Notes: generated from the sequence alone by a model not told the origin. A DNA stretch of 64,000 nt from an uncultured Chloroflexia bacterium (GCA_963798955.1 CAWCVO010000002.1:157599-221598), one strand, 5' to 3'; positions 13,284 through 49,339 are shown, numbered from the stretch's first letter. Made by a program: numbers and translations.

Positions 13284-13625
13284 GACGGGAGCTGATCTCG
13301 CTGTACGACTCGGCGACGAACACGCTCCGCACGCCGTATCGGCATCGATCAGGGCGTCCGCCAGGAGCATCGAGGAGCAGCCCCTCGGTGGGATTGATGG
13401 CGATCGTGATCAAGGAGCGCCGGGCACTTCGCCTGGGCACCAGCGCAGAGGCAGATGCGCTGGGCGCGCTCGTCTTCGGAGCTGACGATTACGAGTCATG
13501 GCTGGGCGTGCCGATCCTTGCCGGTGACCGCGTTCTCGGTGCCGTCTCTCTCGAGCGTGCCCCGAAGAACGCGTTCAGCGAGTCGGACGAGCGTCTGCTG
13601 GCGACCATCGCCGCGAACCTCGGGC

Positions 13626-19393
<5,768 letters not shown>

Positions 19394-19397
<4 letters not shown>

Positions 19398-19750
19398 GCG
19401 AAGCTCCGATCCTCGATCAGGGAGTCCTCGACGAGCTGCGCGATTCGATCGGCGGCGACGAGTCGTTCATCGCCGACCTCGCCGCCACCTACCTCGCGGA
19501 AGGGCCTGGTCACCTCGAGGCGATGCAGGCGGCGGCAGCGGCAGGCGATGCAGCCGCGATCGTCCGCCCCGCGCACACGCTCAAATCGAGCAGTGCCGCG
19601 CTCGGGGCCATGCGCCTGTCGGAACTGGCCCGCGAGATCGAGTTCGCCGGTCGCAACGGCGAGGTTGCGGACCTTGCGTCTCGGGTGGCCACGGCGAGCT
19701 CGACCTGGGCGGCGACGGTCGAGGAGATGAAACGGGCAGGACTGGCGTGA
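19394..19750 (+). CDS. histidine phosphotransfer (Hpt) domain protein
   Basis: [13 protein letters not shown] is the HxxKG Hpt signature. A TTG start overlaps the kinase stop (cTTGA), and its own stop overlaps the next start (GTGA). Confidence 0.75.
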
Positions 19751-20856
19751 GCGAACCGGTTGCGCTGATCGTCGACGACAGCGCCGTCAACCGGATGCTG
19801 CTCGCCCGCCACTTGATGTCGCTCGGAATCTCTTCGCGCGAGGCAGTCGATGGACGCGCCGCTCTCGATCTCCTGCGCGAGGGCAAGAGTGGCGTGGCAG
19901 TCGTGCTGCTGGACGTCGAGATGCCCGAGATGGACGGCTACGAAACGCTCGCGACGATCAAGTCCGACGAGTCCCTCCGTCATGTGCCGGTGATCATGGT
20001 CTCCGGCGTGGACGAGCTCGATAGCGTGGCGCGCTGCATCGAGCTGGGCGCCGCTGATTTCCTGACCAAGCCGTTCAACCCGGTCATCCTGGGCGCTCGC
20101 GTACGAGCCTCACTGGCAGACAAGCGGATGCGCGACCTCGAGACCGAGCATGCCGCTCGCCAGGCCGAACTGCTCGACACCATCGAGCGCCAGAAAGAGG
20201 AGTTGAGCCGTTTCCTGTCGCCACAGGTGGCGGCGCTGGTGTCGACCGCCGAAGGCCAGCAGCTACTGGCCGGCCATCGGCGCGAGGCGACCGCCGTCTT
20301 CTGCGACCTACGCGGCTTCACGGCGTTCAGCGACTCGGCCGAACCCGAAGAGGTGCTCGGCCTGTTGCGCGAGTACCACGCCATGATGGGCGCGCTCATC
20401 GTCGAGCACGGCGGCACGCTCGAACATTTCGCGGGCGACGGAATGATGGTCTTCTTCAACGATCCGGTGCCGCAGGCCGATCATGTCGAACGTGCCGTGC
20501 GCATGGCGGTGGCCATGCGCGAACGCTTTGGTGAGCTGGCCGCGCGGTGGGCCAAGCTGGGGTTCGAGCTGGGCCTGGGCATCGGCATTGCGACCGGCTA
20601 CGCGACTCTGGGCCGCATCGGTTTCGAGGGCCGCTACGACTACGGCATGGTGGGCGCGGCGGTGATCACCGCTTCGCGCCTCAGCTCGGCGGCCGAAGCA
20701 GGACAGATCCTGCTCAACCCGCGCGCCCACGCGGCAGTCGAGGCGCTGATCGACGGCGAGGACGTCGGCGCGCTGCAGCTCAAGGGCTTCGCTCGCCCGA
20801 TCCCGACCATTAACGTGCTCGGCCTGGTGTCGCAGGGCGAGTCAGTTCCCGCCTGA
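19747..20856 (+). CDS. response regulator with class III adenylate/guanylate cyclase output domain (REC-CYCc)
   Basis: REC motifs (IVDDS…LLDVEMPEMDG…K) followed by a cyclase catalytic domain (AVFCDLRGFTAFSD… FAGDGMMVFFN… GIGIATGYATLGRIG). Confidence 0.85.
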   Translation: MSEPVALIVDDSAVNRMLLARHLMSLGISSREAVDGRAALDLLREGKSGVAVVLLDVEMPEMDGYETLATIKSDESLRHVPVIMVSGVDELDSVARCIELGAADFLTKPFNPVILGARVRASLADKRMRDLETEHAARQAELLDTIERQKEELSRFLSPQVAALVSTAEGQQLLAGHRREATAVFCDLRGFTAFSDSAEPEEVLGLLREYHAMMGALIVEHGGTLEHFAGDGMMVFFNDPVPQADHVERAVRMAVAMRERFGELAARWAKLGFELGLGIGIATGYATLGRIGFEGRYDYGMVGAAVITASRLSSAAEAGQILLNPRAHAAVEALIDGEDVGALQLKGFARPIPTINVLGLVSQGESVPA

Positions 20857-35494: not shown

Positions 35495-36106
35495 TCAGCG
35501 CGCGCCGGCCAGGCGTCGGGCAACGAAGATGGTCGCGAAGGCTGCCAGCGTCCAGCTCATCTCGGCCAGGAACGGCGAGACGAAGGTGACGGGGATCGAC
35601 AGCAGGAACACGAGCGGCACGGTCAGCTGGCGGAACCGGGTCACGCGCACGAAGCGGGGATCCAGGTCGCTCGTCAGGAGTCCGCGCCGAAGTGCGTACT
35701 CCCACATCCCAGCCGAGGTGAAGCCCAGCGCGGCCAGGCCGGCGGCGTAGAGCGCGGCCGGGGCAGCCAGGCCGCCATGAGCGCCGAGCGTGCCGGTGAC
35801 AAACGGCAGCTGCACCACGAAGAACAGGAACAGCGTGTTGAGGAACAGCAGACCGCTTGTCCAGCGCACGACGAAGCGGAACATGCGGTGGTGCGCGGCC
35901 CAGTACGCGGCGATGACGGCAAAGCTGAGCACGAACGCGAAGTAGTTCGGTACGAGCCCGGCCAGCAGGTCCACGAACTCGCCGTTGGTCAGGTCACCAA
36001 CGTCGGGCAGGCGCAGATCGATGGCGAGCAGCGTGAGCGCGATGGCCATTACGGCGTCGCTGAAGAAGATGATTCGTTCGAGCGGCAGTTCGTCGCGATC
36101 GATCAC
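35495..36106 (-). CDS. TMEM175/DUF1211-family K+ channel homologue
   Basis: RxxxFSDAVMAIALTLL signature on TM1 and six predicted TM helices; 203 aa. Confidence 0.7.
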   Translation of the reverse strand: MIDRDELPLERIIFFSDAVMAIALTLLAIDLRLPDVGDLTNGEFVDLLAGLVPNYFAFVLSFAVIAAYWAAHHRMFRFVVRWTSGLLFLNTLFLFFVVQLPFVTGTLGAHGGLAAPAALYAAGLAALGFTSAGMWEYALRRGLLTSDLDPRFVRVTRFRQLTVPLVFLLSIPVTFVSPFLAEMSWTLAAFATIFVARRLAGAR

Positions 36107-36114
36107 GGAGGCCG

Positions 36115-36363
36115 TCAGGCAGGTACGCGGCGTCCACCCTGGCCGGCGGGTGCCTCACCGGACGAGTCATCCGGGTGGGCGGCGGTCACGCGCTGATATT
36201 CGGCGCGCAGGGTGGCGATCTCTGCTTCCAGGGCGTCGTAGTCGTCGCTGAGCGGCTCAACTTCGGCCAAGCGTCGCTCGAGTTCTCGCCACGCATCAAG
36301 GACCTCGCGTGCGGCGCGGTCGCTCACGTCTCCCTCCACGGCAGTGCGCGAACCCGTGTACAC
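36115..36363 (-). CDS. hypothetical small coiled-coil protein
   Basis: 82-aa ORF, charged and helical, immediately upstream of the TMEM175 gene. Confidence 0.35.
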   Translation of the reverse strand: MYTGSRTAVEGDVSDRAAREVLDAWRELERRLAEVEPLSDDYDALEAEIATLRAEYQRVTAAHPDDSSGEAPAGQGGRRVPA

Positions 36364-36421
36364 ATGCAGCAGGACCTATATAGCGCAGGCGGTCACGGCG
36401 ATCAAGCAGCCAGGCGGCGGA

Positions 36422-37216
36422 TCACATGGTCTGGTTGGCGATCGCCAATTCACGCTTCGTCCAGGACTGCAGTGCGCTCAATTGGCGTTCGTCGAGCACG
36501 TCACAAGCCCAGTCCCAGTGAATTGAGACGACGTCACCGGGCGCGACCTGCGCCACGAACCCCAGCCCATCGCGAAATCCGCTGATGCGTTCGGCTCGCG
36601 GCGGACCCACCTGCAGCCTGCCTTCGACCATCGCCAGCGGCACCGCATTGACGACCAATTCATCGCCGATGCGCTCGCTTACGCGTCCCCAACGAATGCG
36701 GCACGAATCCATCACCTTGAGCACGTTGTCGGTCGCGCCCGAGCGCATCAGCCCCACGCGCGGGAAGACGTCCAGCACGTGGAAGGCGTGCACCGGCAAG
36801 CCGCCGACGTTCGGCTTGTCGCTCAGCCAGCGCCAGCCGTCGCCGCGCAGCCGCCGCCGAAAGCGCTCGTCGAGCGAGCGCCCGAACATGCGCGGGTCCA
36901 CCCTGTCGAGCAGCTCGTTGCCCAGCCAGTACGCCTCCACCACGCGCGCATCGAGCGGATCGGAGATGCCGTTGGCGGTGGCGATCAGGCGCAGGTAGGG
37001 GAAGGCGCCCTCGAACTGCTCGGCTTCATGGCGCAGTGCGCCGAGGTCATGGCCAACCGTGGCCTGGGCGAACAGCTCATCGGCACTGGCAGGTCCGCAG
37101 TAGCCCAGGCGGTTGGGACCAAACGCGTAGCGCGCAAAGAGGATCGGCCCGGGCACCCGGGCTGGCCGCGATCGAAGTATGGAAGGCAGCCGCGCGGGCG
37201 AAACCATGAGGCTCAC
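36422..37216 (-). CDS. hypothetical protein, last gene of the hydrogenase maturation operon
   Basis: 264-aa ORF with no motif recognised. The ATGA overlap with the hypC stop implies co-translation. Confidence 0.55.
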   Translation of the reverse strand: MSLMVSPARLPSILRSRPARVPGPILFARYAFGPNRLGYCGPASADELFAQATVGHDLGALRHEAEQFEGAFPYLRLIATANGISDPLDARVVEAYWLGNELLDRVDPRMFGRSLDERFRRRLRGDGWRWLSDKPNVGGLPVHAFHVLDVFPRVGLMRSGATDNVLKVMDSCRIRWGRVSERIGDELVVNAVPLAMVEGRLQVGPPRAERISGFRDGLGFVAQVAPGDVVSIHWDWACDVLDERQLSALQSWTKRELAIANQTM

Positions 37217-37434
37217 GATGCGCCGCGCTGCGCCGCGCGCAGTTCCTCGTTGATCGCAGCTGCCTCAACGGCGTCGAGGCGCTCCAGGACGGTGCCCAGC
37301 GCGACGCGCACCCAGTCGCCGGGAGCCGTGTCGGGCATCAGCAGGGTCGATGCCTGCCAGCGCCTGCCCTCACTCTCGACGACCGCGAGGTCGCCTTCCC
37401 GGCCGATGACCTGGGCCACGAAATCGAGGCACAT
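37213..37434 (-). CDS. hypC: hydrogenase maturation factor HypC/HybG
   Basis: 73 aa starting MCL (essential Cys2) plus an OB-fold-like sequence (MCLDFVAQVIGREGDLAVVE…). Confidence 0.8.
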   Translation of the reverse strand: MCLDFVAQVIGREGDLAVVESEGRRWQASTLLMPDTAPGDWVRVALGTVLERLDAVEAAAINEELRAAQRGAS

Positions 37435-37435
37435 G

Positions 37436-37945
37436 TCAACGCCTGCCGGCCGCTGCCGGCCGCCGGCCCAAGCGCTCGATGCCGTGCCCGATGGCGGCCA
37501 CGAATACCGGCAGCGCGTGCTCAACCTCGGGCGACAGCTCGTCGCCCAATCCGAACTCGGCGCCACCCATGCCCACGAACATGCCCTCGACCGGGGCGTC
37601 CCCGAGGACACTCGCGATGCCCAGCACCTGCGCTATGGGCAGCGCGTGCGAGCTGCGCGGGGCAGGCACTCGCGCGTCGGCGAGCAACTCGTGCAGTTCG
37701 AGCGTGACGACCTGGCCGGCGGGCACGCCCGCCGCGGCATCGACGATCAGCACCGGCGTGCCCGCCGGTACATCGAGCAGATGGTCGACATCGAGCTGGC
37801 CGCAGTAGCGCACGTCCACGTCCATGTGGCTTTGCTCGCGCAGGCTGGGCAGCAAGCGCCCTATGGCGTGCAGGGCCACGCCGTCATCGGCGCGATCAGG
37901 CGTACCGCACACCAGAACGCGAACGGCGCCGGCATCACTGATCAT
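37436..37945 (-). CDS. [NiFe] hydrogenase maturation endopeptidase (HyaD/HycI family)
   Basis: VRVLVCGTPDRADDGVALHAIGRL… typical of the Ni-dependent C-terminal protease; about 170 aa from an internal ATG. Confidence 0.8.
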   Translation of the reverse strand: MISDAGAVRVLVCGTPDRADDGVALHAIGRLLPSLREQSHMDVDVRYCGQLDVDHLLDVPAGTPVLIVDAAAGVPAGQVVTLELHELLADARVPAPRSSHALPIAQVLGIASVLGDAPVEGMFVGMGGAEFGLGDELSPEVEHALPVFVAAIGHGIERLGRRPAAAGRR

Positions 37946-39266
37946 CGCGTGCTTCCTCCACATGCACCTCGAGGAAGTGCGTGGCGCACGAGATGCACGG
38001 GTCGTATGCGCGCACCAGTTGCTCAAGCCGGCGCGTCGCCTCGGCCTCGGGCAGTCCCAACACGGCCGGCGCAAAACCCGTCAGGTCGGCCTCGATGGCG
38101 GCCTGGTTCTGGCTGGTGGGCGGCACGATGCGTGCCCTGCTGATAAGGCCCTGCTCGTCGATGTGGTAGGCATGGAAGAGCAGGCCGCGCGGCGCCTCGG
38201 TGGCCCAGCCGGTCGTGCCCGGGCGCGTGGTCCAGGCCGTCGAGGGTGTCTCAGGTCGTGAGTACGCCTCGACGATGTCCAGGGCTTCGGCGGTCGCGTG
38301 CACGAGTTCCACGGCGCGCGCGGCGATCGACCAGAACGGGTTGCGCCTGATCTCGCGCGCGAGCCCGAGCGAGCCGAGCGCCTCCCGAGCGAGCGGATGC
38401 AGCTTCTCGGCATTGAGCGTCAGGCGCGCCGAGGGCCCGAGCAGATAGACCTCGCCGGCGCGCGTACGCGCCTGCAGCGCGTGCGACCAACCGACCTGGT
38501 CCTCCTCGAAGGCGTCCTCCCAGCGGTCGATCGCGACGTCGAGCCCGTCGGTCGAGACGATCCGGCCGTCGTTCATGGGGTACTCGGTCGGATGACGCAG
38601 CGAGACGAGTCGCGGTTCGCGCTCGAAGGGCGGCGCCGACAGCGTGGCGACGAAGTCGACCGTCGCCTGGGCCAGGCTCAACGCCTCCTCGAGCCGGGGT
38701 CGCAGCGCGCGCAGCTCCTCGACGCGCGGCACGCGGCTGAAGCCGCCGACGCGCACCGTCAGTGGGTGGATCGGTCGCGCGCCGAGCAGCGTGACCAGGT
38801 CGTTGCCGATCTTCTTGAGGGTCAGGCCCTGCTGGACCACGGCGCGGTGATCGGCAGCCAACTCGATCGCGCTCTCGTAGCCGAGGAAGTCGGGCGCGTG
38901 AAGAAGGTAGACGTGCAGTGCATGGCTCTCGATCCACTCGCCGCAATAGAACAGCCGGCGCAGTGCCCGGATCTGCGGATCGACGGCGACCTCGAAGAGC
39001 TTCTCGAACGCGTGCACGGCGCTCATCTGATAGGCAATCGGGCAGATGCCGCAGATGCGCGAAACGATGTCGATCACCTCGTCGGGCGTGCGCCCGACAA
39101 CGAGCCGTTCGAAGTAGCGTGGTGCCTCGAAGATACCCAGTTGCGCCTCGACCACCTGGCCGTCGGCGACGCGCAGGGTGAGCGAGCCCTCGCCCTCCAC
39201 GCGCGTCAGCTGGCCGATGTCGAAGTGCCGCTCACCGGTGACGGGCGGCGTGAGCGTGTGAGTCAT
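37935..39266 (-). CDS. [NiFe] hydrogenase large (catalytic) subunit, group 3-type
   Basis: N-terminal RICGICPIAY (L1 CxxC) and C-terminal DPCISCATH (L2 CxxC plus His cleavage site). GGAAGG ribosome-binding site. Confidence 0.9.
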   Translation of the reverse strand: MTHTLTPPVTGERHFDIGQLTRVEGEGSLTLRVADGQVVEAQLGIFEAPRYFERLVVGRTPDEVIDIVSRICGICPIAYQMSAVHAFEKLFEVAVDPQIRALRRLFYCGEWIESHALHVYLLHAPDFLGYESAIELAADHRAVVQQGLTLKKIGNDLVTLLGARPIHPLTVRVGGFSRVPRVEELRALRPRLEEALSLAQATVDFVATLSAPPFEREPRLVSLRHPTEYPMNDGRIVSTDGLDVAIDRWEDAFEEDQVGWSHALQARTRAGEVYLLGPSARLTLNAEKLHPLAREALGSLGLAREIRRNPFWSIAARAVELVHATAEALDIVEAYSRPETPSTAWTTRPGTTGWATEAPRGLLFHAYHIDEQGLISRARIVPPTSQNQAAIEADLTGFAPAVLGLPEAEATRRLEQLVRAYDPCISCATHFLEVHVEEARDDQ

Positions 39267-40093
39267 GACCTGTCCTTCCCCTCGGCTATCGCGCGGAAGG
39301 CCGGCGCGTAGACGGTGAAACCAGAGAACAGGCGGACCACTTCGGCGCGCGAGCGCCCGTCTGCTTCGAGGTAGTCGGCCAGCGCGTGCGTGTTGGCCGC
39401 TTCCTTGGGACCGAAGCAGCCATAGCAGCCACGGTCGAACGAAGGGCATAGCGCGCCACAGCCGGTGCGCGTGACCGGGCCCAGGCAGGCAACGCCCTGG
39501 GCCACGAGGATGCACGGATTACCGCGCCGCTTGCATTCAAGGCAAACGGCCTCGTCGGGTAACTGTGGACGCCGGCCGGTGCTCAGCGCGGTCAGCAGCT
39601 CGAGCAGCTGCGCGCCTGAGATGGGGCAGCCGTACAACTCGGCATCAACAGCGACGTGATCCGACACGGGCGTGGACGTCGCCAGCGACTCGACCAGCTC
39701 GGGCCGTGGATAGACGGCGTTGCGAAAGGCGTCGTGATCGCCCAGGTTGCGCAGCGCCTGGATGCCACCGCTCGTCGCGCAGGCGCCGATGGTGACCAGG
39801 GTGGCCGCCTCGCGGCGCAGCCGGACGATCTCCTCGGCCTGTTCGGGCGTGCTGATCGAGCCCTCGACGAGTAGGACATCGAAGGGGCCCTGCGACCGCC
39901 GCGAGGTGGCCTCGGCGAACTCGACGATCTCGAAGTGCTCAGTGACCGCGAGCAGCTCGTCCTCGAGGTCGAGCAGCGTCAGTTGGCAGCCGTCGCACGA
40001 CGCGAACTTGACGATGCCCACGCGCGGCCGGCGGACGGCGGCCGCGCGGCCGGCGGCGGGCCGCGGCAGCGGGTTGACGATCGCCGACATCAC
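39263..40093 (-). CDS. [NiFe] hydrogenase small subunit (group 3 delta subunit, NuoB-like)
   Basis: IVKFASCDGCQLTLL… GACATSGGIQ… plus C-terminal [4Fe-4S] cysteines. Confidence 0.85.
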   Translation of the reverse strand: MMSAIVNPLPRPAAGRAAAVRRPRVGIVKFASCDGCQLTLLDLEDELLAVTEHFEIVEFAEATSRRSQGPFDVLLVEGSISTPEQAEEIVRLRREAATLVTIGACATSGGIQALRNLGDHDAFRNAVYPRPELVESLATSTPVSDHVAVDAELYGCPISGAQLLELLTALSTGRRPQLPDEAVCLECKRRGNPCILVAQGVACLGPVTRTGCGALCPSFDRGCYGCFGPKEAANTHALADYLEADGRSRAEVVRLFSGFTVYAPAFRAIAEGKDRS

Positions 40094-42129
40094 AGTCCCT
40101 CCGTTTCGAAGGCCGGGCCGAGCTCGGCCAGCGACAGCACGGGACCGTCACGGCAGACGAAGAACTTGCCCAGCTGGCAGTGGCCGCACAGGCCGACGCC
40201 GCAGTCCATGTGCCGTTCGAGAGTCACGAAGATCCGCTCGTCGGTCAGGCCACGCTCGCGAAGGACCTCCGCCGTCGCGCGCATCATGCGTTCCGGCCCG
40301 CACACGAACGCAACCGTGCGATCGCACGAGCACAGCGCCCGGTCGATCACCTGGGTTACGACGCCCACCCGACCGAGCCACTCGGGCCCGGCGCGATCGA
40401 CCGTCTGGGCCACTTCGATGATGCCGCTTGCACCGAGCGCGTTCAGTTCGTCGACGTACAGGCGGTCACTCGGTGTCCGCGCCCCGTAGGCGAGGTGGAT
40501 GACACCGATGCGCTCGCGACGCGCGATCAGGGCGTCGATCAGCGGGCGCAGCGGCGCGAGGCCGATGCCGCCGGTGATGATCATCACGTCACGCCGGTCA
40601 GCCTCCTCGACCGGCCAGCCGCGTCCGAACGGCCCGCGCAGGCTGAGCGTGTCGCCGCGCTCCAGTGCGCAGATCTTCGTGGTCGCGGGACCGGCGGCAC
40701 GGATCGTCAGCTCCAGCCCGTCAGGCCGGAAACGCGATACGGAGATGGGTGGCGCGGCAACCGCCGGCAGGGCGGCCATGACGAACTGACCGGGGCGCCC
40801 GGCCAGTAGGTCTGGATCGCCGGTGGCGAGGCGCAGGGTGACGGTATCGGCCGTCTCGCGGCGCTTCTCGACAACCTGCGCCAGCGACGGATGTGCGCGG
40901 TGCCGGCCAAAGGTTGGCGGCTCACCGTCCGGTTCTGCCTGGTGGAGGACGTTCGGTGGCGCCGGCGTCTCGGGCAGCGGCGCGGTCGCAGTGACCTTGA
41001 CCAGTTCCTCACGAACGTCGATGCCGACCGGGCACCAGGTGATGCACCGGCCGCAGCCCACGCAGCCCGAACTGCCGAACTGGTCCCACCAGGTCCCGAA
41101 CTTGTGCGTCAGCCACTGTCGGTAGCGGTCCTCGGGGCGCGTGCGGAAGTTGCCGCCCGCGACGCGCGCGAAGTCGAGCGTGAAACAGCTGTCCCAACGT
41201 CGCTCGCTGGTCGCCGAATCGCCGTCCAGGTCGGAGGTCTGGCCGACGCTCGTGCAGAAGCAGGTCGGGCAGACCAGCGTGCAGTTGGCACATGCCAGGC
41301 AGCGCTCTGCGATCTCCGCCCAGCGTGGCGAACTGGCCGCCGCGACCAACTTGCCGGCCAGCCCTTCGGTACTGAAGGGAGCGCTCATTCCGGCGCGCAC
41401 GGCAGCCACGCTGGCGCGTGCGGCGGCGACCTGGTCGGGGCCGGCAGGACCCAGCCCCAGCTCGGCGATGACGCCCGCGCCAGCCGCGGAGCCGACACGC
41501 AACACGAAACCCTCGTCAAGCTCCGAGAGGGCGAGGTCAAAACCGTTCGTAACCTCGGGCCCGGTGTTCATCGTCGAGCAGAAACAAGTCCCGCCGGCCA
41601 CGGCACACTCGACGGCCACGATCAGGTTGTCGGCACGCCGCGCCCCGTAGTCACCGTCTGCCACCGGGCCATCGCGCAGCACCCGGTCATGGACGCGCAG
41701 CGCGGCTATCTCGCACGCGCGCACGCCCACGAAGGCGCGCGGCGGAACGGGCTGGCGCGGCGGAACAGGTCGCACGGCGCCGTCGGTCGGCTCCCATTCG
41801 ACCTGGGTCACGCGCGGAGGAAATGTGAAGCGCTTCCACGACATTGGCCCGACCGGCTGGTCGAAGACCCGCTCGTCGTCGCGCTTGACGAGACGAGACT
41901 TGCCGGGAGCATTGTCCAGGCCGATGCCGATGGGCAGCTGCGCCGCGGAGGTCAACTCGGACAGAACGACGGTGCCCTCCGCCACCGTCGGCCCGATTAC
42001 CTCGCGGCCGCCGGCGTGCAACGCGGCGATGAAGCGGTCGAGTTCCTGCCGCGGCAGGAACAGCGCACCCGGCTCGGCACCCTCCGGCGCTGCCTCGGCC
42101 GGCGCGTGGCGTGGTCCCGAGGTCACCAT
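40090..42129 (-). CDS. fused hydrogenase beta-gamma diaphorase subunit: N-terminal 4Fe-4S ferredoxin-like (HydB-like), C-terminal FAD/NAD(P)-binding plus [2Fe-2S] (HydG-like)
   Basis: CLACANCTLVCPTCFC… CVGCGRCITWCP (two 4Fe-4S motifs), then an FNR-like oxidoreductase domain ending CGVGLCGHCQLG. Confidence 0.85.
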   Translation of the reverse strand: MVTSGPRHAPAEAAPEGAEPGALFLPRQELDRFIAALHAGGREVIGPTVAEGTVVLSELTSAAQLPIGIGLDNAPGKSRLVKRDDERVFDQPVGPMSWKRFTFPPRVTQVEWEPTDGAVRPVPPRQPVPPRAFVGVRACEIAALRVHDRVLRDGPVADGDYGARRADNLIVAVECAVAGGTCFCSTMNTGPEVTNGFDLALSELDEGFVLRVGSAAGAGVIAELGLGPAGPDQVAAARASVAAVRAGMSAPFSTEGLAGKLVAAASSPRWAEIAERCLACANCTLVCPTCFCTSVGQTSDLDGDSATSERRWDSCFTLDFARVAGGNFRTRPEDRYRQWLTHKFGTWWDQFGSSGCVGCGRCITWCPVGIDVREELVKVTATAPLPETPAPPNVLHQAEPDGEPPTFGRHRAHPSLAQVVEKRRETADTVTLRLATGDPDLLAGRPGQFVMAALPAVAAPPISVSRFRPDGLELTIRAAGPATTKICALERGDTLSLRGPFGRGWPVEEADRRDVMIITGGIGLAPLRPLIDALIARRERIGVIHLAYGARTPSDRLYVDELNALGASGIIEVAQTVDRAGPEWLGRVGVVTQVIDRALCSCDRTVAFVCGPERMMRATAEVLRERGLTDERIFVTLERHMDCGVGLCGHCQLGKFFVCRDGPVLSLAELGPAFETEGL

Positions 42130-42620
42130 GGTTCGACCCAGCGCTGACTGAACAGATCGAGCAGTTGCAGGCGGGTGCCCTCGAGCCGACGGGCCACGGC
42201 GTTCAGCAGCAGCGGGTAGATCTCCGCGGCGAGCTGCTGGTCACGCCCAAGCGCCTCGCGCAGGGCCGCGCCGTCGAAGAGCGCCAGCTCGGTCGGCACC
42301 AGGGCGACGGCTGTCGAGCTGGCGCGGTGGGGTGGCACCAGCGCCGACCAGCCGACGACATCGCCCGGCTCCACGGTCAGGATGGTGACGTTGCCGCGTT
42401 CCGGCACGCGCAGCCGCAGCGCGATGCGCCCACTGAGCACGATACCCACGTTGTCGTTGGGCTCTCCCTCGCGGGTCAGCCCGTCGCCCGCCTCGATCGC
42501 GGCGAGCCGGCCGAGGTCGGCCAGGGCGAGGCGCGTTTCGGGGCGCAGCCCCGTCGTCAGCCAGGCAGCGGCGAGGCTGTCGGCGATGGCGTGGCGACTG
42601 TTGGTGTTGGTTCCTGTCAC
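42123..42620 (-). CDS. cyclic-nucleotide-binding domain protein (Crp-type cNMP-binding fold, no HTH)
   Basis: Beta-roll sequence …DNVGIVLSGRIALRL…GDVVGWSAL…RASSTAVAL. The GTG start at 42620 was chosen; its stop overlaps the hydrogenase beta-gamma start. Confidence 0.7.
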   Translation of the reverse strand: MTGTNTNSRHAIADSLAAAWLTTGLRPETRLALADLGRLAAIEAGDGLTREGEPNDNVGIVLSGRIALRLRVPERGNVTILTVEPGDVVGWSALVPPHRASSTAVALVPTELALFDGAALREALGRDQQLAAEIYPLLLNAVARRLEGTRLQLLDLFSQRWVEPW

Positions 42621-42727
42621 GCTCGAGCGGCTCCTTCCTGCGGGAATCGTCGCGCCGCACGGGTGGTCACGGAGCGTGCCGTTTGGCACGAACGGGCAAC
42701 CCAGTCGTCACCGCACTGGGTGACCGT

Positions 42728-43462
42728 TCAGTGGACGTTGACGCCGATGGCCTGGCCGACGATGAACGTAACCGCCGCGGCCGCGCCGCCGAGCAGCATC
42801 TGGCGCAGCGCGCCGGGCACCACTGCCCGGCGAGTCAGGACGGCAATGCCGACACCGAGCACCGCCAGGGCGGCGAGGCTGACCAGCAGGCTGCCGGCAA
42901 AGGCTGAGCTACCCTCGAGCAACAGATAGGGAACGAGCGGCACCAGCGCGCCGAGCGTGAAGGCGACGAACGAACTGGCGCCAGCAGCCCACGGCGAGCC
43001 GATCGAGCGCTCGTCGAGGCCGACCTCCTCGAAGATGAGCAGGCGCACGGCGTGATCCGGGTCGGCGAAGACGGCGTCGGCAAAGCGTGCCGCCTCAGCA
43101 GGGTCGAAGCCACGCTCAACGTAGCTGCGGATCAGGATGCGCCGCTCCTGCTCGGGCGCCTCGCGCAGTTGCTTGCGCTGGAAGGCGATCTGAAAATCGA
43201 GCAGCTCGCGCTGGCTCTGGACGGAGATGTACTCGCCGACGCCCATGCTGAAGGCGCCTGCGAGCAACCCGGCCACGCCGGCGAGCACGATGATCCAGGT
43301 CTCCGGCGCGGCGCCGGCGACGCCCATCACCAGCGCCAGGTTGGAGACCAGCCCGTCGTTCGCGCCGAATACGACTGGCCGCAGCACGCTGTTGGCACGT
43401 GTCTCGTGCGGCGCGGTCGCTGCCGGCAGCGCCGGCCGGCCAAAGGCAAGTATCCCGGGCAT
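42728..43462 (-). CDS. VIT1/CCC1-family iron/manganese transporter (no ferritin domain)
   Basis: FGANDGLVSNLALVMGVAG… GEYISVQSQRE. Paralogue of the 22396-23571 gene. Confidence 0.8.
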   Translation of the reverse strand: MPGILAFGRPALPAATAPHETRANSVLRPVVFGANDGLVSNLALVMGVAGAAPETWIIVLAGVAGLLAGAFSMGVGEYISVQSQRELLDFQIAFQRKQLREAPEQERRILIRSYVERGFDPAEAARFADAVFADPDHAVRLLIFEEVGLDERSIGSPWAAGASSFVAFTLGALVPLVPYLLLEGSSAFAGSLLVSLAALAVLGVGIAVLTRRAVVPGALRQMLLGGAAAAVTFIVGQAIGVNVH

Positions 43463-43547
43463 GCGCGGACGCTAACCACGCCACGCGCCAGCACGAAGGG
43501 CCATCCGGCCCGAAAGCGTCAACCGGTAGTGACTGGCGCGGCCTCGC

Positions 43548-45482
43548 TCAGCCGGCGGAGCTCAGGTCGTACAGGCGACCCCCGACCTCGGTGACCAGGG
43601 TGCCGTGCTCGGTGACCCAGGCCGCCAGGTCAGTACTGCCGCCGCCCAGGCTGCGCAAGCCGCCCGGCCCAGCGAAGCCACCCGGGCCGCCAAAACCGCC
43701 ATCCGACAGCAGGAAGTAGCGCAGCTGGCCGCTGGCCACGTACTGCTTTAGCTGATCCACCGTCAGGGCGTTGTCGGATCCGTTGAAGCCGCCCACGGCC
43801 ATGACCGCATCACCCGTCGCGAGCTGGATCGGTGCCGCCTCGTTCGAGGAGGCCACGGCGACCAGCCAGGTCGCGTCGCCCTTGTTGGCTTCCAGGTAGG
43901 CGATCAGCTGATCGTCGGCCTGTCCACGGCCGCGCGCGAAAGGGGCACCCCCCGGGACGCCACCGGGACCGCCGCGCAAGCCGGCGTTCGTCGCCGGGCC
44001 AGGCTGCGGATCGCCAGCCGAATAGGCCGTGTTCATCGTCGCCGCGGCGTAGGCAGCGGGCCCGGCGAGCATCGCCACCAGGCCGAGCGTTGCCGCCGCT
44101 ACGGCCAGCCGGGGCGTGACGCCTGGCAGCAGCAGGCCCGCGTCGGCGATCGCCGCCGCGAGGAGCACGAGCGGGATCAGCCACGGCGCGAAGTCGGGCG
44201 TCCGGGCAAGCATGACCGCGGCGAGCAGCGCGGTGGCGGTCAGCGCGCCGGCCATGGTCAGCGTCGCGGCCATGCCCGCCGTGCCACCGGCGCGCCGCAG
44301 CTTCCACAACTCGCCGGCGCCGGCGCCGACGAGGGCACCGATTGCGGGCGCCAATACGACCGCGTAGTAGCTGTGGACGATGCCGCCCATGAACGAGAAG
44401 ACCAGGCCGGTAACGAGAAGCCAGCCACCCCACATCAGGAACGCGGCGCGGCGCAGGTCGGTACGGGGCGCTCGCGCGCGGACCACGAGGCCCACGCCGA
44501 GGGCGATCAGCGCCGCCGGTAGCAGCCAGGCCACCTGGCCACCGAACTCTGAATTGAACAGGCGCAGCAGCCCCGGATCGCCCGAGAAACCGGCGCCTGG
44601 TCCACCGCCACCGCCCGCTGCGCCCGGGCGACCATCGAGTCCGAAGAAGCCGAAGATCCGCTGCAGCCCGTCATAGCCGAACACCAGCTCGAGTGCCGAG
44701 TTGGTCGTGCTGCCACCGATGAACGGCCGCGCAGCGGCGGGAGTGAGCTCGACCGCGGCGATCCAAGCGAAGCTGCTGACGAGGACCGTGGCCAGCGCCG
44801 CCAGCAGGTGCGCCACGCGTCGTGCGACGCCTCCGGGCGCGGCGACGAAGTAGGTCAGCGCAAACGCGGGCAGGACGAGATATGCCTGCAGGAACTTGGT
44901 GTTGAAGGCGAGCCCGACCAGCAACGCCGCGCCCATGACCCAGCGCAGTCGGCCTTCCTCGAGCCCACGCATGAAGCAGTACGCCGAAGCCACCAGCAGC
45001 AGCGTGAGCAGCGCGTCGGGATTGTTGTAGCGAAAGATCAGCACCGCCGCCGGAGTCAATGCGGCGACGGTCGCGGCGATGGTCGCGGCGAGCGTCCCGA
45101 AGTAGCGCCGCACGGCAATGAACAGCAGCACGACCGTCGCGACACCGGCCACGGCCTGCGGCAACAGGACGCTCCACGACGAGAGGCCGAACACCCGCAC
45201 CGACAGGCCCATGAGCATGGTCGAGAGCGGCGGCTTGTCGACGGTGATGAAGTTCGCCGGGTCGAGCGATCCGAAGAACCACGCCGTCCAATCCAGGCTG
45301 GCCGCCTGGGCGGCCATCGAGTAGTAGGCGTTGGCGTAGCCGCTGACGGTCAGGTTGAACAGGTACACGAAGGCTGCCAGGGCGCCAACGGCGGGTAGCG
45401 CGATGGCCTTGATCAGCGAGCGCGCCGAAACCGCCGAGCTTTCGCGCACAGCGCGATTTGCCGCTGCGACGCGGTCGAGCAT
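43548..45482 (-). CDS. GT39/ArnT-like polytopic membrane glycosyltransferase with C-terminal soluble domain
   Basis: About 12 predicted TM helices with PMT/ArnT-like N-terminal loops (…DKPPLSTMLMGLSVRVFG…), Gly-rich linkers and a C-terminal domain. The ATG at 45482 was chosen to avoid overlap with the divergent gene. Confidence 0.6.
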   Translation of the reverse strand: MLDRVAAANRAVRESSAVSARSLIKAIALPAVGALAAFVYLFNLTVSGYANAYYSMAAQAASLDWTAWFFGSLDPANFITVDKPPLSTMLMGLSVRVFGLSSWSVLLPQAVAGVATVVLLFIAVRRYFGTLAATIAATVAALTPAAVLIFRYNNPDALLTLLLVASAYCFMRGLEEGRLRWVMGAALLVGLAFNTKFLQAYLVLPAFALTYFVAAPGGVARRVAHLLAALATVLVSSFAWIAAVELTPAAARPFIGGSTTNSALELVFGYDGLQRIFGFFGLDGRPGAAGGGGGPGAGFSGDPGLLRLFNSEFGGQVAWLLPAALIALGVGLVVRARAPRTDLRRAAFLMWGGWLLVTGLVFSFMGGIVHSYYAVVLAPAIGALVGAGAGELWKLRRAGGTAGMAATLTMAGALTATALLAAVMLARTPDFAPWLIPLVLLAAAIADAGLLLPGVTPRLAVAAATLGLVAMLAGPAAYAAATMNTAYSAGDPQPGPATNAGLRGGPGGVPGGAPFARGRGQADDQLIAYLEANKGDATWLVAVASSNEAAPIQLATGDAVMAVGGFNGSDNALTVDQLKQYVASGQLRYFLLSDGGFGGPGGFAGPGGLRSLGGGSTDLAAWVTEHGTLVTEVGGRLYDLSSAG

Positions 45483-45584
45483 GGCCGGCGTATCCACGCC
45501 CTCGACTCTCGCCGGCGCGCATGTGAGGGTCCCGCGCAGTAGCTGTGAGGTCGATGTGGATGTGGCGCTGCTAGCCTCGCGCAG

Positions 45585-46694
45585 ATGCTGCCTCAACCCG
45601 TCGCTCCTCGGCTGCCCGCCGGCATCGACAGCCCGGCGCTGGTCATCGACGTTGGCATCGTCCAACGCAACGCGCGGCGGATGGCTGGCGCGGTGAGTGG
45701 GCGCGGCGTGGCTCTCAGGCCACATGTCAAGACGCACAAGAGCGTGGCCATTGCCCAAATGCAGCTCGAGGCCGGCTCGACGGGTATCACCGTCGGCACG
45801 CTGGGCGAGGCGGAGGTGATGGCCGAAGGCGGTATCGCCGACATCTTCGTGGCGTACCCCGTCTGGGCGGATGCGGCCAAGGCCAGGCGGCTGCGGGCGC
45901 TGCACGAGCGGTCCGAGCTGGCCCTGAGCGTCGGGCTCGATTCGGTGGCCGGCGTCCAGTCACTGGCCGCTGCCGTGGCGGGCACCGCGCGACCGCTGGC
46001 CGTGTTGATCGAACTCGATTCCGGCCAGCACCGCACCGGCGTCGATCCGGCGCGCGCCGTCGAGATCGCTCGCGCCGCACAGACCGCCGGGCTGGCCGTG
46101 CGCGGCCTGTTCACGCATGGTGGCCACGCCTACGGCGGCCTCGATGCCGGAGCAGGCGCGGCGCACGATGAGGTGAGCGCCCTTGCTGCGGGACGTGAGG
46201 CGCTCCGCGCCGCGGGAATCGACGTGCAGCTACTCAGCGCCGGTTCGTCGCCGACCGCGTTGCGCTCGGCAAGCGCACCGGTAACCGAAGTGCGACCCGG
46301 CACTTACGTCGTCGGCGATCGCCAGCAGGTGGCGCTCGGCGCCAGTCCACCCGACGGCGTGGCGATCGCCGTCGCGGCGACCGTGGTGAGCGACGGCTCC
46401 GACCGGGTCGTGACCAACGCCGGCGCCAAGACGCTGACCAAGGACGTGCCGCCGTATCTTGCCGGCTACGGCTGCCTGCCCCGGTACCCCGATGGCGTAA
46501 TCGAACGCGTATCCGACTACCACGGCGTGATCGTCTTCCCCGCCGGCAGTGCCCGGCCGCAGCTGGGCGAAGTGGTCGCGGTGGTGCCCAACCATGCCTG
46601 TCCGGTGATCGACCTGTTCGACACGTTCTTGGCCACGCGCGACGGCGAGCTGGTCGGGGTTTGGCCGGTCGACGCGCGGGGCCGCTCCGGCTAG
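45585..46694 (+). CDS. alanine-racemase-fold PLP enzyme (D-threonine aldolase / D-serine deaminase DSD1-like)
   Basis: RPHVKTHKS PLP-lysine motif at the N-terminus and a C-terminal D-serine-dehydratase-like domain. Confidence 0.8.
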   Translation: MLPQPVAPRLPAGIDSPALVIDVGIVQRNARRMAGAVSGRGVALRPHVKTHKSVAIAQMQLEAGSTGITVGTLGEAEVMAEGGIADIFVAYPVWADAAKARRLRALHERSELALSVGLDSVAGVQSLAAAVAGTARPLAVLIELDSGQHRTGVDPARAVEIARAAQTAGLAVRGLFTHGGHAYGGLDAGAGAAHDEVSALAAGREALRAAGIDVQLLSAGSSPTALRSASAPVTEVRPGTYVVGDRQQVALGASPPDGVAIAVAATVVSDGSDRVVTNAGAKTLTKDVPPYLAGYGCLPRYPDGVIERVSDYHGVIVFPAGSARPQLGEVVAVVPNHACPVIDLFDTFLATRDGELVGVWPVDARGRSG

Positions 46695-46696
46695 CG

Positions 46697-47992
46697 CTAG
46701 CTGACGAAGGATGTCGCGACGAGAACGAGCGACATGACCACGAGGATCACGGTCACCAGCCAACCCAGGGTCAGGTTGATGCGCCCGCTCGCCAGCTCGC
46801 CCATCAAGCGCCGATCACCGGCGAGGAGCATGACGAAGACGAGGATGATGGGCAGCAGCAGCCCGTTGAGGACCTGCGCGCTGAACATGACCTGGATGAG
46901 CGGCAGGCCGGGGATGAGCATGAACAAGGCGGCGAAGCCGATGAAGAAGGCCAGCAGGCCGTAGAAGGCGGGCGCCTCGCGCCAGCGCCAGTCGACGCCG
47001 AGCTCCCAGCCGAAGGCTTCGCACGCGGTGTACGCGCTGGCCAGGGGAACCACGCCCAGGCCGAGCAGCGACGCCGCCAGGATGCCCACTGCAAACACCG
47101 CCGAGGCGACGTTACCCGCCAGCGGTCCTAGGGCGTTGGCGGCGTCGGCGGCGCTGGTGATGTCGGTCTGGCCGGCGGCCCACAGGGTCGCCGCGCAGGC
47201 AACCAGGATGAACGCCGCGATGACGTTGGTGATGAACACACCGATGAGGACGTCCAGCCGCTCGGCGGCCAGGTCTTCCGAGCGCAATCGCTTGTCGACC
47301 ACGTAGGCCTGGATGAAAGACTGCCCCCAGGGGGTGATCGTCGTGCCCACGGTGCCCACGACAGCCAGCATGTACACGCCGTCGAAGCTGCCGTGCGGGA
47401 TGACCAGTGAATTGAGCGCCTGGCCCCAATCCGGCCGGGCCAGGATGGCCGACACGATGTAGGCACCCGATACGATCACGCCGATGCCCACGAAGGCGTA
47501 CTGCACGCGGTTGAAGCTGCCCCGGCCGATGAGCGTGATGACCGCGATCGCGGCCAGCAGCGCGCTGAGCGGAACCGGCACGTTGAACAGCGACAGGGCG
47601 GCGCTGATGCCGGCGAACTCGGACACCGTCGAACCCAGGTTGGCAATGATCATGGTCAGCGCCGCAAACGCCGCCCAGCGGACCCCGAAGCGCTCGCGGA
47701 TCAGGCCCGTCAAACCCTGGCCGGTGGCAAGGCCGATCCGGGCACCGATCTCCTGGGTGACGAACAACGCGATCTGCGTCGCGAGGAGGACCCACAGCAG
47801 CTCGTAACCGAAGCGCGCACCCGCCAGCGAGTAGGTCGTGATGCCGCCCGCGTCGTTGTCGGCGAAGCCGCTGACGATGCCCGGCCCGAGCACGGCGAGC
47901 ACCGCGGCGAAGCGTGTGCGCCGGCCCAGGTGGCGGCGGATCGCGGGCGCCAGCGCCGCGGCAGGCGTCGGCGGCCTGGTCGAGTCGGTCAC
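46697..47992 (-). CDS. mntH: NRAMP-family divalent metal (Mn2+/Fe2+) transporter
   Basis: GPGIVSGFADNDAGGITTYSLAGARFGYELLWV matches the Nramp TM1 consensus; 11 predicted TM helices. Confidence 0.85.
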   Translation of the reverse strand: MTDSTRPPTPAAALAPAIRRHLGRRTRFAAVLAVLGPGIVSGFADNDAGGITTYSLAGARFGYELLWVLLATQIALFVTQEIGARIGLATGQGLTGLIRERFGVRWAAFAALTMIIANLGSTVSEFAGISAALSLFNVPVPLSALLAAIAVITLIGRGSFNRVQYAFVGIGVIVSGAYIVSAILARPDWGQALNSLVIPHGSFDGVYMLAVVGTVGTTITPWGQSFIQAYVVDKRLRSEDLAAERLDVLIGVFITNVIAAFILVACAATLWAAGQTDITSAADAANALGPLAGNVASAVFAVGILAASLLGLGVVPLASAYTACEAFGWELGVDWRWREAPAFYGLLAFFIGFAALFMLIPGLPLIQVMFSAQVLNGLLLPIILVFVMLLAGDRRLMGELASGRINLTLGWLVTVILVVMSLVLVATSFVS

Positions 47993-48001
47993 GGCGGGGC
48001 G

Positions 48002-49339
48002 TCAGCGCGCATTGCGCGCGAACAGGCGCGGCAGGCGCTTCTTCCAGGCGGTCGGCAGGATTGCGTCCATCGCGTCGTCGACGGTCACGATCCCTTCGAG
48101 CTTGCCGTCGTCATCGACAACCGGCACGGCGAGCAGGTTGTAGCGCGCCACCACCGCGGCCACGTCATCCTGGTTGGAAAGCACGCCCACGGCAACCGGC
48201 TCCTTGATCATCACCTGCGCGATCTTCGTGTCCGGAGGGGCGACGATCAGGTCGCGCAACGAGAGCACGCCCACCAGGCGCCCGTCGTCGTCGACGACGT
48301 AGACGTAGTAGATCGTCTCCGCGTCGGGCTCCAGTTCGCGCAGGCGATCGATCGCCTGGGCCGCGGTGAGCGTCGCGGGAATGGCGATGAACTCGGTGGT
48401 CATGATCGCGCCGGCCGACTCCTCCGGATAGCTCAACAGCTCCTTGACTTCCTCGGCCTCGGTCTTCTGCATCAGGGCGAGGATCTCCTCGCGCGCCTGA
48501 GCGGACAGGTCGGCGACCAGGTCGGCTGCGTCGTCGGGACTCATCTCCTCGAGGATGTCGGCGGCGCGCTCGGGCAGCAGGTCTTCGAGCACCTCGACCT
48601 GCGTGTCGGGCTCCATCTCCTCCATGGCATCGGCGACGGCCTCGTCATCGAGCGAGGCGAGGATGCCGGCACGGTCCTTGGGCGTCAGCTGGTCGATGAT
48701 CGAGGCGAGGTCGGCCGGATGCAGCTCGGCCAGGCCGGCGTGCGGCACGCGCAGCTTGACCGACGCGATGGAGCTCTCGAGCGGATCGACGTCCTCCCAG
48801 TCGATATAGCGCTCCGGCACGCGCCGGCCCACGTTGCGGGCGAGTATCTGGAACGGGCCCTCGATGCCCAGCCGGCGCATCAGCCCGGCGGCACCAACGT
48901 CCACCGCGACGAGGCGCAGCGCGCCCTCGACGATGTCGAGTGACAGGTCGTTGACGCGCACGATCCGGCGCCCGTCGATGTCGACGATCTGCTTGTCCAT
49001 CAGGTCCTGCTTCAGCAGGATCTCGTTGGGGCGCTGGCGGAACTTGCCGATATCGATCGTCCGCGTGCGGATGCGCGCTCCTTCGGCGTCGAGCGACGCG
49101 ACCGACGACCAGGGCAGGAAGATCTTGCGTCCGTCCGTGGAAATGACCAGGCCGGTGACCGGCGGGTAGCGCTCACCGACCGCGACGATCAGGTCGGCGA
49201 CCTTACCGATCGGCTCCCCGTTCTGGTCACGAACGGGCTTGCCGATGGCCTGACTCAGGTACAGCATTTGCCACCTCGGCGGGCGGTACGCCCCGGCCGA
49301 CGTGGCGGTCCCGGACTTCGAGTCCGAGTGCCCGGGCAA
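48002..49339 (-). CDS. soluble PRC-barrel / MgtE-N / tandem-CBS protein (MgtE cytoplasmic sensor module without a pore domain)
   Basis: Two PRC-barrel-like segments, an MgtE_N acidic helical domain (EVLEDLLPERAADILEEMSPDDAADLV) and two CBS motifs. There are no TM helices. It ends 9 nt before the NRAMP gene. Confidence 0.75.
   Translation of the reverse strand: MPGHSDSKSGTATSAGAYRPPRWQMLYLSQAIGKPVRDQNGEPIGKVADLIVAVGERYPPVTGLVISTDGRKIFLPWSSVASLDAEGARIRTRTIDIGKFRQRPNEILLKQDLMDKQIVDIDGRRIVRVNDLSLDIVEGALRLVAVDVGAAGLMRRLGIEGPFQILARNVGRRVPERYIDWEDVDPLESSIASVKLRVPHAGLAELHPADLASIIDQLTPKDRAGILASLDDEAVADAMEEMEPDTQVEVLEDLLPERAADILEEMSPDDAADLVADLSAQAREEILALMQKTEAEEVKELLSYPEESAGAIMTTEFIAIPATLTAAQAIDRLRELEPDAETIYYVYVVDDDGRLVGVLSLRDLIVAPPDTKIAQVMIKEPVAVGVLSNQDDVAAVVARYNLLAVPVVDDDGKLEGIVTVDDAMDAILPTAWKKRLPRLFARNAR

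Follow-up and report, generated by a model that had tools for sequence, protein, structure and literature searches.

The window analyzed here, a stretch of 64,000 nucleotides (nt) from an uncultured Chloroflexia bacterium, carries on its minus strand (36422-42620) seven densely packed genes, which are best explained as the structural-plus-maturation operon of a cytosolic, NAD(P)-coupled and bidirectional group 3b [NiFe]-hydrogenase. The first gene encodes a small protein with the fold of a cyclic nucleoside monophosphate (cNMP)-binding domain, and the second one a fusion of both diaphorase subunits, HyhBG. Considered as a whole, a group 3b operon in which the cNMP-fold protein supports or regulates the diaphorase as a partner, analogous to HoxI of the soluble hydrogenase (SH) of Cupriavidus necator, appears moderately probable, and what is uncertain in this picture is almost wholly what the cNMP-fold protein does. 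Operons of this type, encoding ordinary soluble NAD(P)-linked [NiFe]-hydrogenases, are common among soil bacteria, and nothing in the operon of the window departs from what is found in hundreds of related genomes. The host is a high-GC bacterium, its closest named relatives being Chloroflexota metagenome-assembled genomes (MAGs) of Limnocylindria type; database homologue searches returned Limnocylindrales/Chloroflexota MAGs with 61-69% identity.

Hydrogenase class and diaphorase fusion

The large subunit HyhL (alpha; 39266-37935, minus strand; 443 amino acids, aa) features the motifs RICGICPIAY and DPCISCATH, scores 99.9 bits with the Pfam family NiFeSe_Hases and continues for 13 aa beyond DPCISCATH, a C-terminal extension which is predicted to be cleaved. 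Its class was assigned from nearest-neighbor scores in the PDB and NCBIfam and from the identity to a Rhodococcus protein, together serving as a proxy for HydDB or a reference phylogeny. In the PDB, the group 3b enzymes of Thermococcus kodakarensis and Pyrococcus furiosus reached 214-217 bits, compared to 150 bits for the group 3d enzyme of Hydrogenophilus, 141 bits for group 3c, at most 115 bits for group 3a and less than 105 bits for groups 1 and 2. In NCBIfam, the sulfhydrogenase alpha models ShyA (271.9 bits) and HydA (225.5 bits) ranked ahead of frhA (133 bits) and VhuA (127 bits). All NCBIfam equivalog cut-offs were missed widely (e.g., 272 vs. 700 bits), which points to a distant bacterial branch relative to the archaeal 3b enzymes. 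Moreover, HyhL shares 49% identity with its counterpart from a plasmid operon of Rhodococcus qingshengii, and the cluster of R. equi, laid out like this plasmid operon, has been assigned to hydrogenase 3b (PMC13332983). Based on these scores, the initial annotation of HyhL as the large subunit of a group 3b [NiFe]-hydrogenase can be regarded as well supported. The small subunit HyhS (delta; 40093-39263, minus strand; 276 aa) is of the cytosolic type and matches Pfam Oxidored_q6 with 77.8 bits as well as NCBIfam ShyD and HydD with 160 and 156 bits.

The diaphorase is encoded by a single open reading frame (ORF) of 679 aa, HyhBG (42129-40090, minus strand; Pfam Fer4_22, NAD_binding_1 and DHODB_Fe-S_bind). 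A beta-like Fe-S part related to AsrA/HydB (about residues 1-397, nt 42129-40939) is joined by a variable, Pro-rich linker (about residues 398-437, nt 40938-40819) to a gamma-like part related to AsrB/HydG with FAD/NAD(P)H and [2Fe-2S] sites (about residues 438-679, nt 40818-40093). In NCBIfam, one half of the ORF matches HydB/ShyB (143 bits) and the other one HydG/PRK08345 (155-163 bits); likewise, the beta subunit of P. furiosus SHI (PDB 9nez) aligns with residues 96-397 and its gamma subunit with residues 438-667. Both an AsrA-like Fe-S beta module and an AsrB-like FAD/NAD(P)/[2Fe-2S] gamma module are therewith present in one polypeptide. The best 120 database homologues of HyhBG are all 608-837 aa long at 58-99% identity, and B and G share one stop-free frame in 26 of 80 species-representative GTDB loci, nearly all of them Chloroflexota MAGs, while both genes are separate in Planctomycetota and most other phyla. 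An assembly error can be dismissed as the source of the fusion, since the long frame recurs in these homologues and loci; the concern that a stop codon had been missed is answered by a single ORF which spans SHI beta and gamma and recurs across independent assemblies. By the same counts, the rarity implied by the initial annotation does not hold, as the fusion is the norm in the Chloroflexota-type clade. In an alignment of 32 fused homologues, no cysteine varies in the Fe-S motifs or in the C-terminal [2Fe-2S] set, nor does the nucleotide-binding motif GGxGLAPL, and variation is seen in the proline-rich linker of about 40 residues. HyhBG thereby presents itself as a lineage-typical, simple gene fusion, apparently with cofactor sites lacking visible change. 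No paper on the beta-gamma fusion turned up in a search confined to the searchable library.

All seven genes of the initial annotation were recovered in 36422-42620, and the identical genes with equal lengths were called by gene callers in two related metagenome contigs. The overlap of stops and starts, previously thought to extend throughout the operon, applies to five of the six junctions. The stop of the cNMP gene indeed overlaps the start of the diaphorase gene by 7 nt (ATGGTGA, read from the sequence), followed by overlaps as GTGA between hyhBG and hyhS, as ATGA between hyhS and hyhL, of 11 nt between hyhL and the protease gene, and again as GTGA between the genes for HypC and the DUF6390 protein; only the protease and HypC genes are set apart, by a gap of 1 nt. 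A promoter scan of 35900-43700 gave no sigma-70-like site, and terminator-like sites in this range were no commoner than in shuffled sequence, both scans being uninformative for this high-GC organism.

The cNMP-fold protein and its likely partner

The gene heading the operon (42620-42123, minus strand; 165 aa) begins with a GTG codon 10 nt past GGAAGGAG, and its product matches Pfam cNMP_binding (PF00027) with 50.2 bits at a cut-off of 27.5 bits. An AlphaFold2 model (pLDDT 87.8) features a beta-barrel and a long C-helix (residues 128-161 of 165). There was no Pfam match to a helix-turn-helix domain, and the C-helix, closing at residue 161, is the last element of the model. The earlier description as a stand-alone Crp-type domain is in accordance with this, and the label of a CRP/FNR transcription regulator given by JGI was rejected for the missing C-terminal helix-turn-helix domain. 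Homologues of the protein are of similar length (about 165 aa). The nearest structures in Foldseek are CRP of Mycobacterium tuberculosis, GlxR and the CNB domains of protein kinase A (PKA), all of them cAMP-bound (probability 1.00 for CRP and PKA).

The connection between this gene and the hydrogenase was followed in 81 loci, i.e., 80 species-level GTDB loci and one further locus (L001), searched with the proteins of the window. In 73 of them, from many bacterial phyla, a cNMP-fold ORF either adjoins the diaphorase genes or lies among them, so that the synteny sought in relatives was found. Three layouts occur which track taxonomy. The cNMP gene precedes a fused BG gene in 21 loci of Chloroflexota type, as in the window, and separate B and G genes in 12 loci of Planctomycetota. 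In 38 loci, it is placed between B and G, and these comprise Acidobacteriota, Alpha- and Gammaproteobacteria, Verrucomicrobiota, Cyanobacteria, Nitrospinota, Ignavibacteria and others, as well as Actinomycetota (Gaiellales, Solirubrobacterales, Acidimicrobiia). Four of the eight loci lacking the gene end at a contig edge just upstream of B. On annotated plasmids of Rhodococcus and Paraburkholderia, the cNMP gene overlaps B, and in R. qingshengii it overlaps G too. The protein appears to evolve about as slowly as HyhBG, with identities of 83% and 85% compared to 78% and 82% for HyhBG on the same contigs. The link between cNMP gene and hydrogenase is not as novel as it had seemed, given its presence in 73 of 81 loci and its mention in three papers: in passing for Frankia (PMC11879354) and R. 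equi (PMC13332983), and under the label HoxI in the 3b operon of an alphaproteobacterial methanotroph (PMC12319191). Hence, the gene is a widely conserved, uncharacterized companion of the bacterial 3b clade which has already entered the literature.

Further arrangements were observed in individual loci. A second B-G diaphorase pair follows the protease gene in L018 (12727-14715), a second, divergent pair of small and large subunit genes lies upstream in L016 (4807-6730), and the order S-L-protease-BG, lacking a cNMP gene, is found in L070 (5297-9938). In the long-read MAG loci L016, L035 and L043, the large subunits are broken up by frameshifts. Far from any hydrogenase, stand-alone cNMP-fold paralogues sharing the signature GWSW..PPY and the C-helix are encoded on two Streptomyces plasmids, one (L084:5031-5486) beside genes for an MFS transporter and an ornithine decarboxylase and the other (L085:4914-5366) beside universal stress protein (USP), CBS-domain and GAF-kinase genes.

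The ligand pocket was scored on 74 family members aligned with E. coli CRP. At the column of CRP E72, the ribose-contacting glutamate, not a single member has Glu and 63 have Trp, followed by Ser in all 74; at the column of the phosphate-binding R82, Arg occurs in five. The canonical cassette Gly-Glu...Arg-Ser/Thr (G71-E72 and R82-S83 in CRP) is hence absent from the family. In its place, the signature G-W-S-[AW]-x-x-P-P-[YH] is found in all three layout classes, accompanied by a strongly conserved C-helix with RLxxTRLQLLD[LV][YF]. The terminal Trp165 is invariant, in part perhaps owing to dual coding, as its codon and the start ATG of hyhBG overlap (CCATGGTGA). Due to the non-canonical cassette, binding of cAMP or cGMP in the canonical manner is unlikely, and the ligand suggested by the initial annotation loses its footing. 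This bears on the proposal that the protein is a true cAMP/cGMP receptor and an allosteric switch of the hydrogenase, maybe fed by a cyclase 22 kb away. The Pfam score above threshold, the cAMP-bound nearest structures and Arg99 of the window, two residues before the R82 column and invariant in the close subfamily (41 of 74 overall), are consistent with such a receptor. The cyclase itself is real: a protein with Response_reg and Guanylate_cyc domains, a class III nucleotidyl cyclase, is encoded on the plus strand (19747-20856), and a different cyclase lies near the operon in the relative L089. Yet the one in the window is distant from the operon, on the other strand, outside the conserved neighborhood and not syntenic across loci, so that its value as support for a control of the hydrogenase is circumstantial. 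Together with the pocket columns and the replacement of the cassette in every layout class, this renders a cAMP/cGMP switch distinctly unlikely.

The preferred reading, a HoxI-like partner of the diaphorase, builds on position and precedent. The SH of C. necator has the composition HoxFUYHI2, and its two HoxI copies detach at high ionic strength (PMC3189943). HoxI is a loosely bound, dimeric accessory subunit, thought to bind a pyridine nucleotide and not cAMP. The co-assembly with the hydrogenase, considered from the outset, is plausible in view of this precedent and the near-universal synteny. By homology, reducing equivalents of NAD(P)H would enter at FAD and [2Fe-2S] in the gamma half of HyhBG and pass reversibly via [4Fe-4S] clusters in the beta half, and then via the small-subunit clusters, to the [NiFe] site of HyhL. 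The cNMP-fold protein would dimerize via its C-helix and dock on the diaphorase, which it may tune or reductively activate upon binding of a small ligand.

Two other roles have to be weighed for the protein. It could be a free-standing signaling protein, co-transcribed with the hydrogenase and acting outside the enzyme as part of a hypoxia or redox stress regulon, maybe by sequestering a ligand or binding a regulator. The signature-bearing Streptomyces paralogues, encoded elsewhere than at hydrogenase loci and in one case adjacent to USP, CBS and GAF-kinase genes, are compatible with this, as are the USP, CBS and hemerythrin genes surrounding the hydrogenase loci of relatives and the 3b loci lacking the cNMP gene. 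It is nevertheless an unlikely role, as the placement between B and G with overlapping coding ends is typical of stoichiometric subunits and the position is kept across many phyla. Alternatively, the protein could assist the assembly of the diaphorase, e.g., by holding apo-gamma or apo-beta for the insertion of FAD or Fe-S clusters, and be absent from the mature enzyme. Other maturation genes do reside in the operon (endopeptidase, HypC and the HypC-like DUF6390 protein), and HoxI is easily lost from purified SH. The archaeal 3b relatives, however, appear among the matches with alpha, beta and gamma chains and no cNMP-fold chain, and no cNMP-fold protein is known to act as a cofactor-insertion chaperone, which leaves an assembly factor very improbable.

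Natural fusions of the cNMP protein with the diaphorase were sought among database proteins. P0057 (837 aa; cNMP, Fer4_22 and NAD_binding domains; L001:8001-8560) resembled a triple fusion and turned out to be the artefact of a single indel in a long-read assembly; a three-frame reading of L001 placed the true C-terminus of the cNMP protein, ending in RLNATRMQLLDLFAQHGDEPW, and its stop in another frame than P0057. Because the coding ends overlap at the ATGGTGA junction, one indel in the 3'-terminal part of the cNMP gene suffices to create a false fusion. Four further long matches of an exhaustive profile search (P0405, P0487, P0393 and P0373) were discarded as Arg/Pro-rich, out-of-frame artefacts. 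Database fusions of this kind are thus frameshift artefacts of error-prone, long-read, high-GC assemblies. In another long-read MAG locus (L047:8950-9650), B reads into the cNMP gene in-frame with no stop; this is possibly a genuine B-cNMP fusion or a long-read indel artefact and was not relied on.

Several points weigh against the HoxI-like diaphorase partner. The association is a prediction from synteny and the analogy with HoxI, and among the candidates examined there was no trustworthy cNMP-diaphorase fusion protein. Four loci (L026, L070, L071 and L072) truly lack the cNMP gene despite ample upstream sequence, and the Streptomyces paralogues rule out that the subfamily is exclusive to hydrogenases. 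For Hyh of Mycobacterium smegmatis, compared by its published annotation alone, four structural genes with separate beta and gamma and no cNMP gene are given (PMC2799521). Nor does the sequence support orthology to HoxI: the window protein aligns to HoxI with 28.9 bits over 61 residues in BLASTP and 45.9 in hhalign, no better than to generic CRPs (41.7 bits for CRP of M. tuberculosis), and a tblastn search of plasmids including pHG1 at E<=1e-3 did not recover HoxI. Finally, the ligand, presumably not bound in the canonical cAMP/cGMP manner, can only be guessed, a pyridine nucleotide being the most economical guess and pure inference.

Maturation genes and genomic neighborhood

The three genes at the end of the operon would serve the maturation of the large subunit, with HypA, B, D, E and F encoded elsewhere; a tblastn search with the C. 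necator proteins found none of the five genes in the 64-kb window. The maturation endopeptidase (37945-37436, minus strand; 169 aa) matches TIGR00072 with 71.9 bits and Pfam HycI with 28.1 bits, and the HypC/HupF-family chaperone (37434-37213, minus strand; 73 aa), starting with MCL, matches Pfam HupF_HypC with 48.1 bits. The last product (37216-36422, minus strand; 264 aa; Pfam DUF6390, 280 bits) is composed of a helical N-terminal domain and a HypC-like OB-fold C-terminal domain, a barrel with a C-terminal helix, and features invariant cysteines at positions 40, 172 and 238. It lacks the cysteine at residue 2 which marks HypC/HupF, the conserved Cys172 being internal, and sequence homology to HypC was not detectable in Pfam (no HupF_HypC match) or by hhalign (probability 12.8%). 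A HypC-(EamA)-DUF6390 module also follows a membrane-bound, group-1-type hydrogenase in L090 and stands in L091 with no hydrogenase nearby. From these two loci, the DUF6390 protein emerges as a candidate HypC/HupF-like maturation factor which is not specific to group 3b.

Hydrogenases of group 3b rank among the most widely distributed ones in aerobic bacteria of soils and aquatic habitats, where they are thought to let obligate aerobes shed reductant as H2 in hypoxia, and they have been modeled as four-subunit HyhBGSL enzymes from archaeal structures. A broader proposition, advanced tentatively and with considerable doubt, is that most bacterial members are five-component enzymes. In these, members of a dedicated CRP-fold subfamily would form an integral, ligand-sensing part of the AsrAB-type diaphorase, have arrived by convergence at the role played by HoxI in group 3d enzymes, and gate H2 evolution or uptake by a metabolite other than a cNMP, e.g., NAD(P)H, and the DUF6390 protein would be an unrecognized HypC-like chaperone. 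If the cNMP protein is a true fifth subunit, bacterial 3b enzymes carry an unrecognized regulatory input, the reading of H2 fluxes from gene presence is affected, and the omitted partner could explain the poor activity of NADPH-regenerating hydrogenases in heterologous expression.

The operon is embedded in a neighborhood which is conserved in the relatives L088 and L089 in the order VIT1, operon, TMEM175. Directly upstream, a block for metal and ion transport (42728-49339, minus strand) encodes VIT1, a PMT_2/YkcB glycosyltransferase, Nramp and a PRC-MgtE_N-CBS protein, an order kept in both relatives; VIT1, of an iron/manganese transporter family, is only 107 nt from the cNMP gene, and TMEM175 lies downstream of the operon. 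The minus-strand intergenic region between VIT1 and the cNMP gene (42621-42727) features two short inverted repeats, GTCACC..GGTGAC and GTGCCaaacGGCAC, which are possible regulator sites. The cyclase mentioned above belongs to a phosphorelay, whose existence was confirmed. On the plus strand (13410-20856), a hybrid histidine kinase of 1995 aa with matches to eight GAF domains and two receiver domains, an Hpt protein of 151 aa and the response-regulator cyclase are encoded in this order, together a complete phosphorelay with cyclase output.

Comparison with known systems

The cNMP-fold protein shares the effector-domain fold and the C-helix with transcription factors of the CRP/FNR family. Unlike these, it is devoid of a helix-turn-helix and ends a few residues past the C-helix. 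In this regard, HoxI of the group 3d SH of C. necator offers the closer parallel, being likewise a stand-alone cNMP-fold protein (about 165-167 aa for both) with no output domain, encoded in the operon of a soluble group 3 hydrogenase and missing the canonical arginine of the cassette. Nevertheless, the two differ in several respects. In C. necator, hoxI (167 aa) is placed after the protease gene hoxW (hoxFUYHW-I) and not among the diaphorase genes, its partner is the Complex-I-type HoxFU instead of an AsrAB-type diaphorase, and HoxI retains Gly-Glu and does not carry the GWS/PP signature. HoxI is hence best treated as an analogue and not as a demonstrated orthologue.

With the hydrogenases of P. 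furiosus (SHI) and T. kodakarensis (9nez, 9e15, 5yxy), the enzyme of the window has the alpha, delta, beta and gamma modules and the sets of cysteine ligands in common. In contrast to the archaeal enzymes, a linker of about 40 residues unites beta and gamma in a single polypeptide, and the archaeal PDB entries appear among the matches with alpha, beta and gamma chains and no cNMP-fold chain. For Hyh of M. smegmatis, the disposal of reductant as H2 in hypoxia has been described as the physiological role. The operons of Rhodococcus, Frankia (synton-4), Paraburkholderia and 'M. acidophilus' 29 encode the same five protein modules as the window, together with the endopeptidase. The cNMP-fold protein of these actinobacterial and proteobacterial operons is 32% identical to that of the window and shares its signature. 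There, the cNMP gene is placed between separate B and G genes, whereas in the window it comes first and is followed by B and G as a single fused gene.

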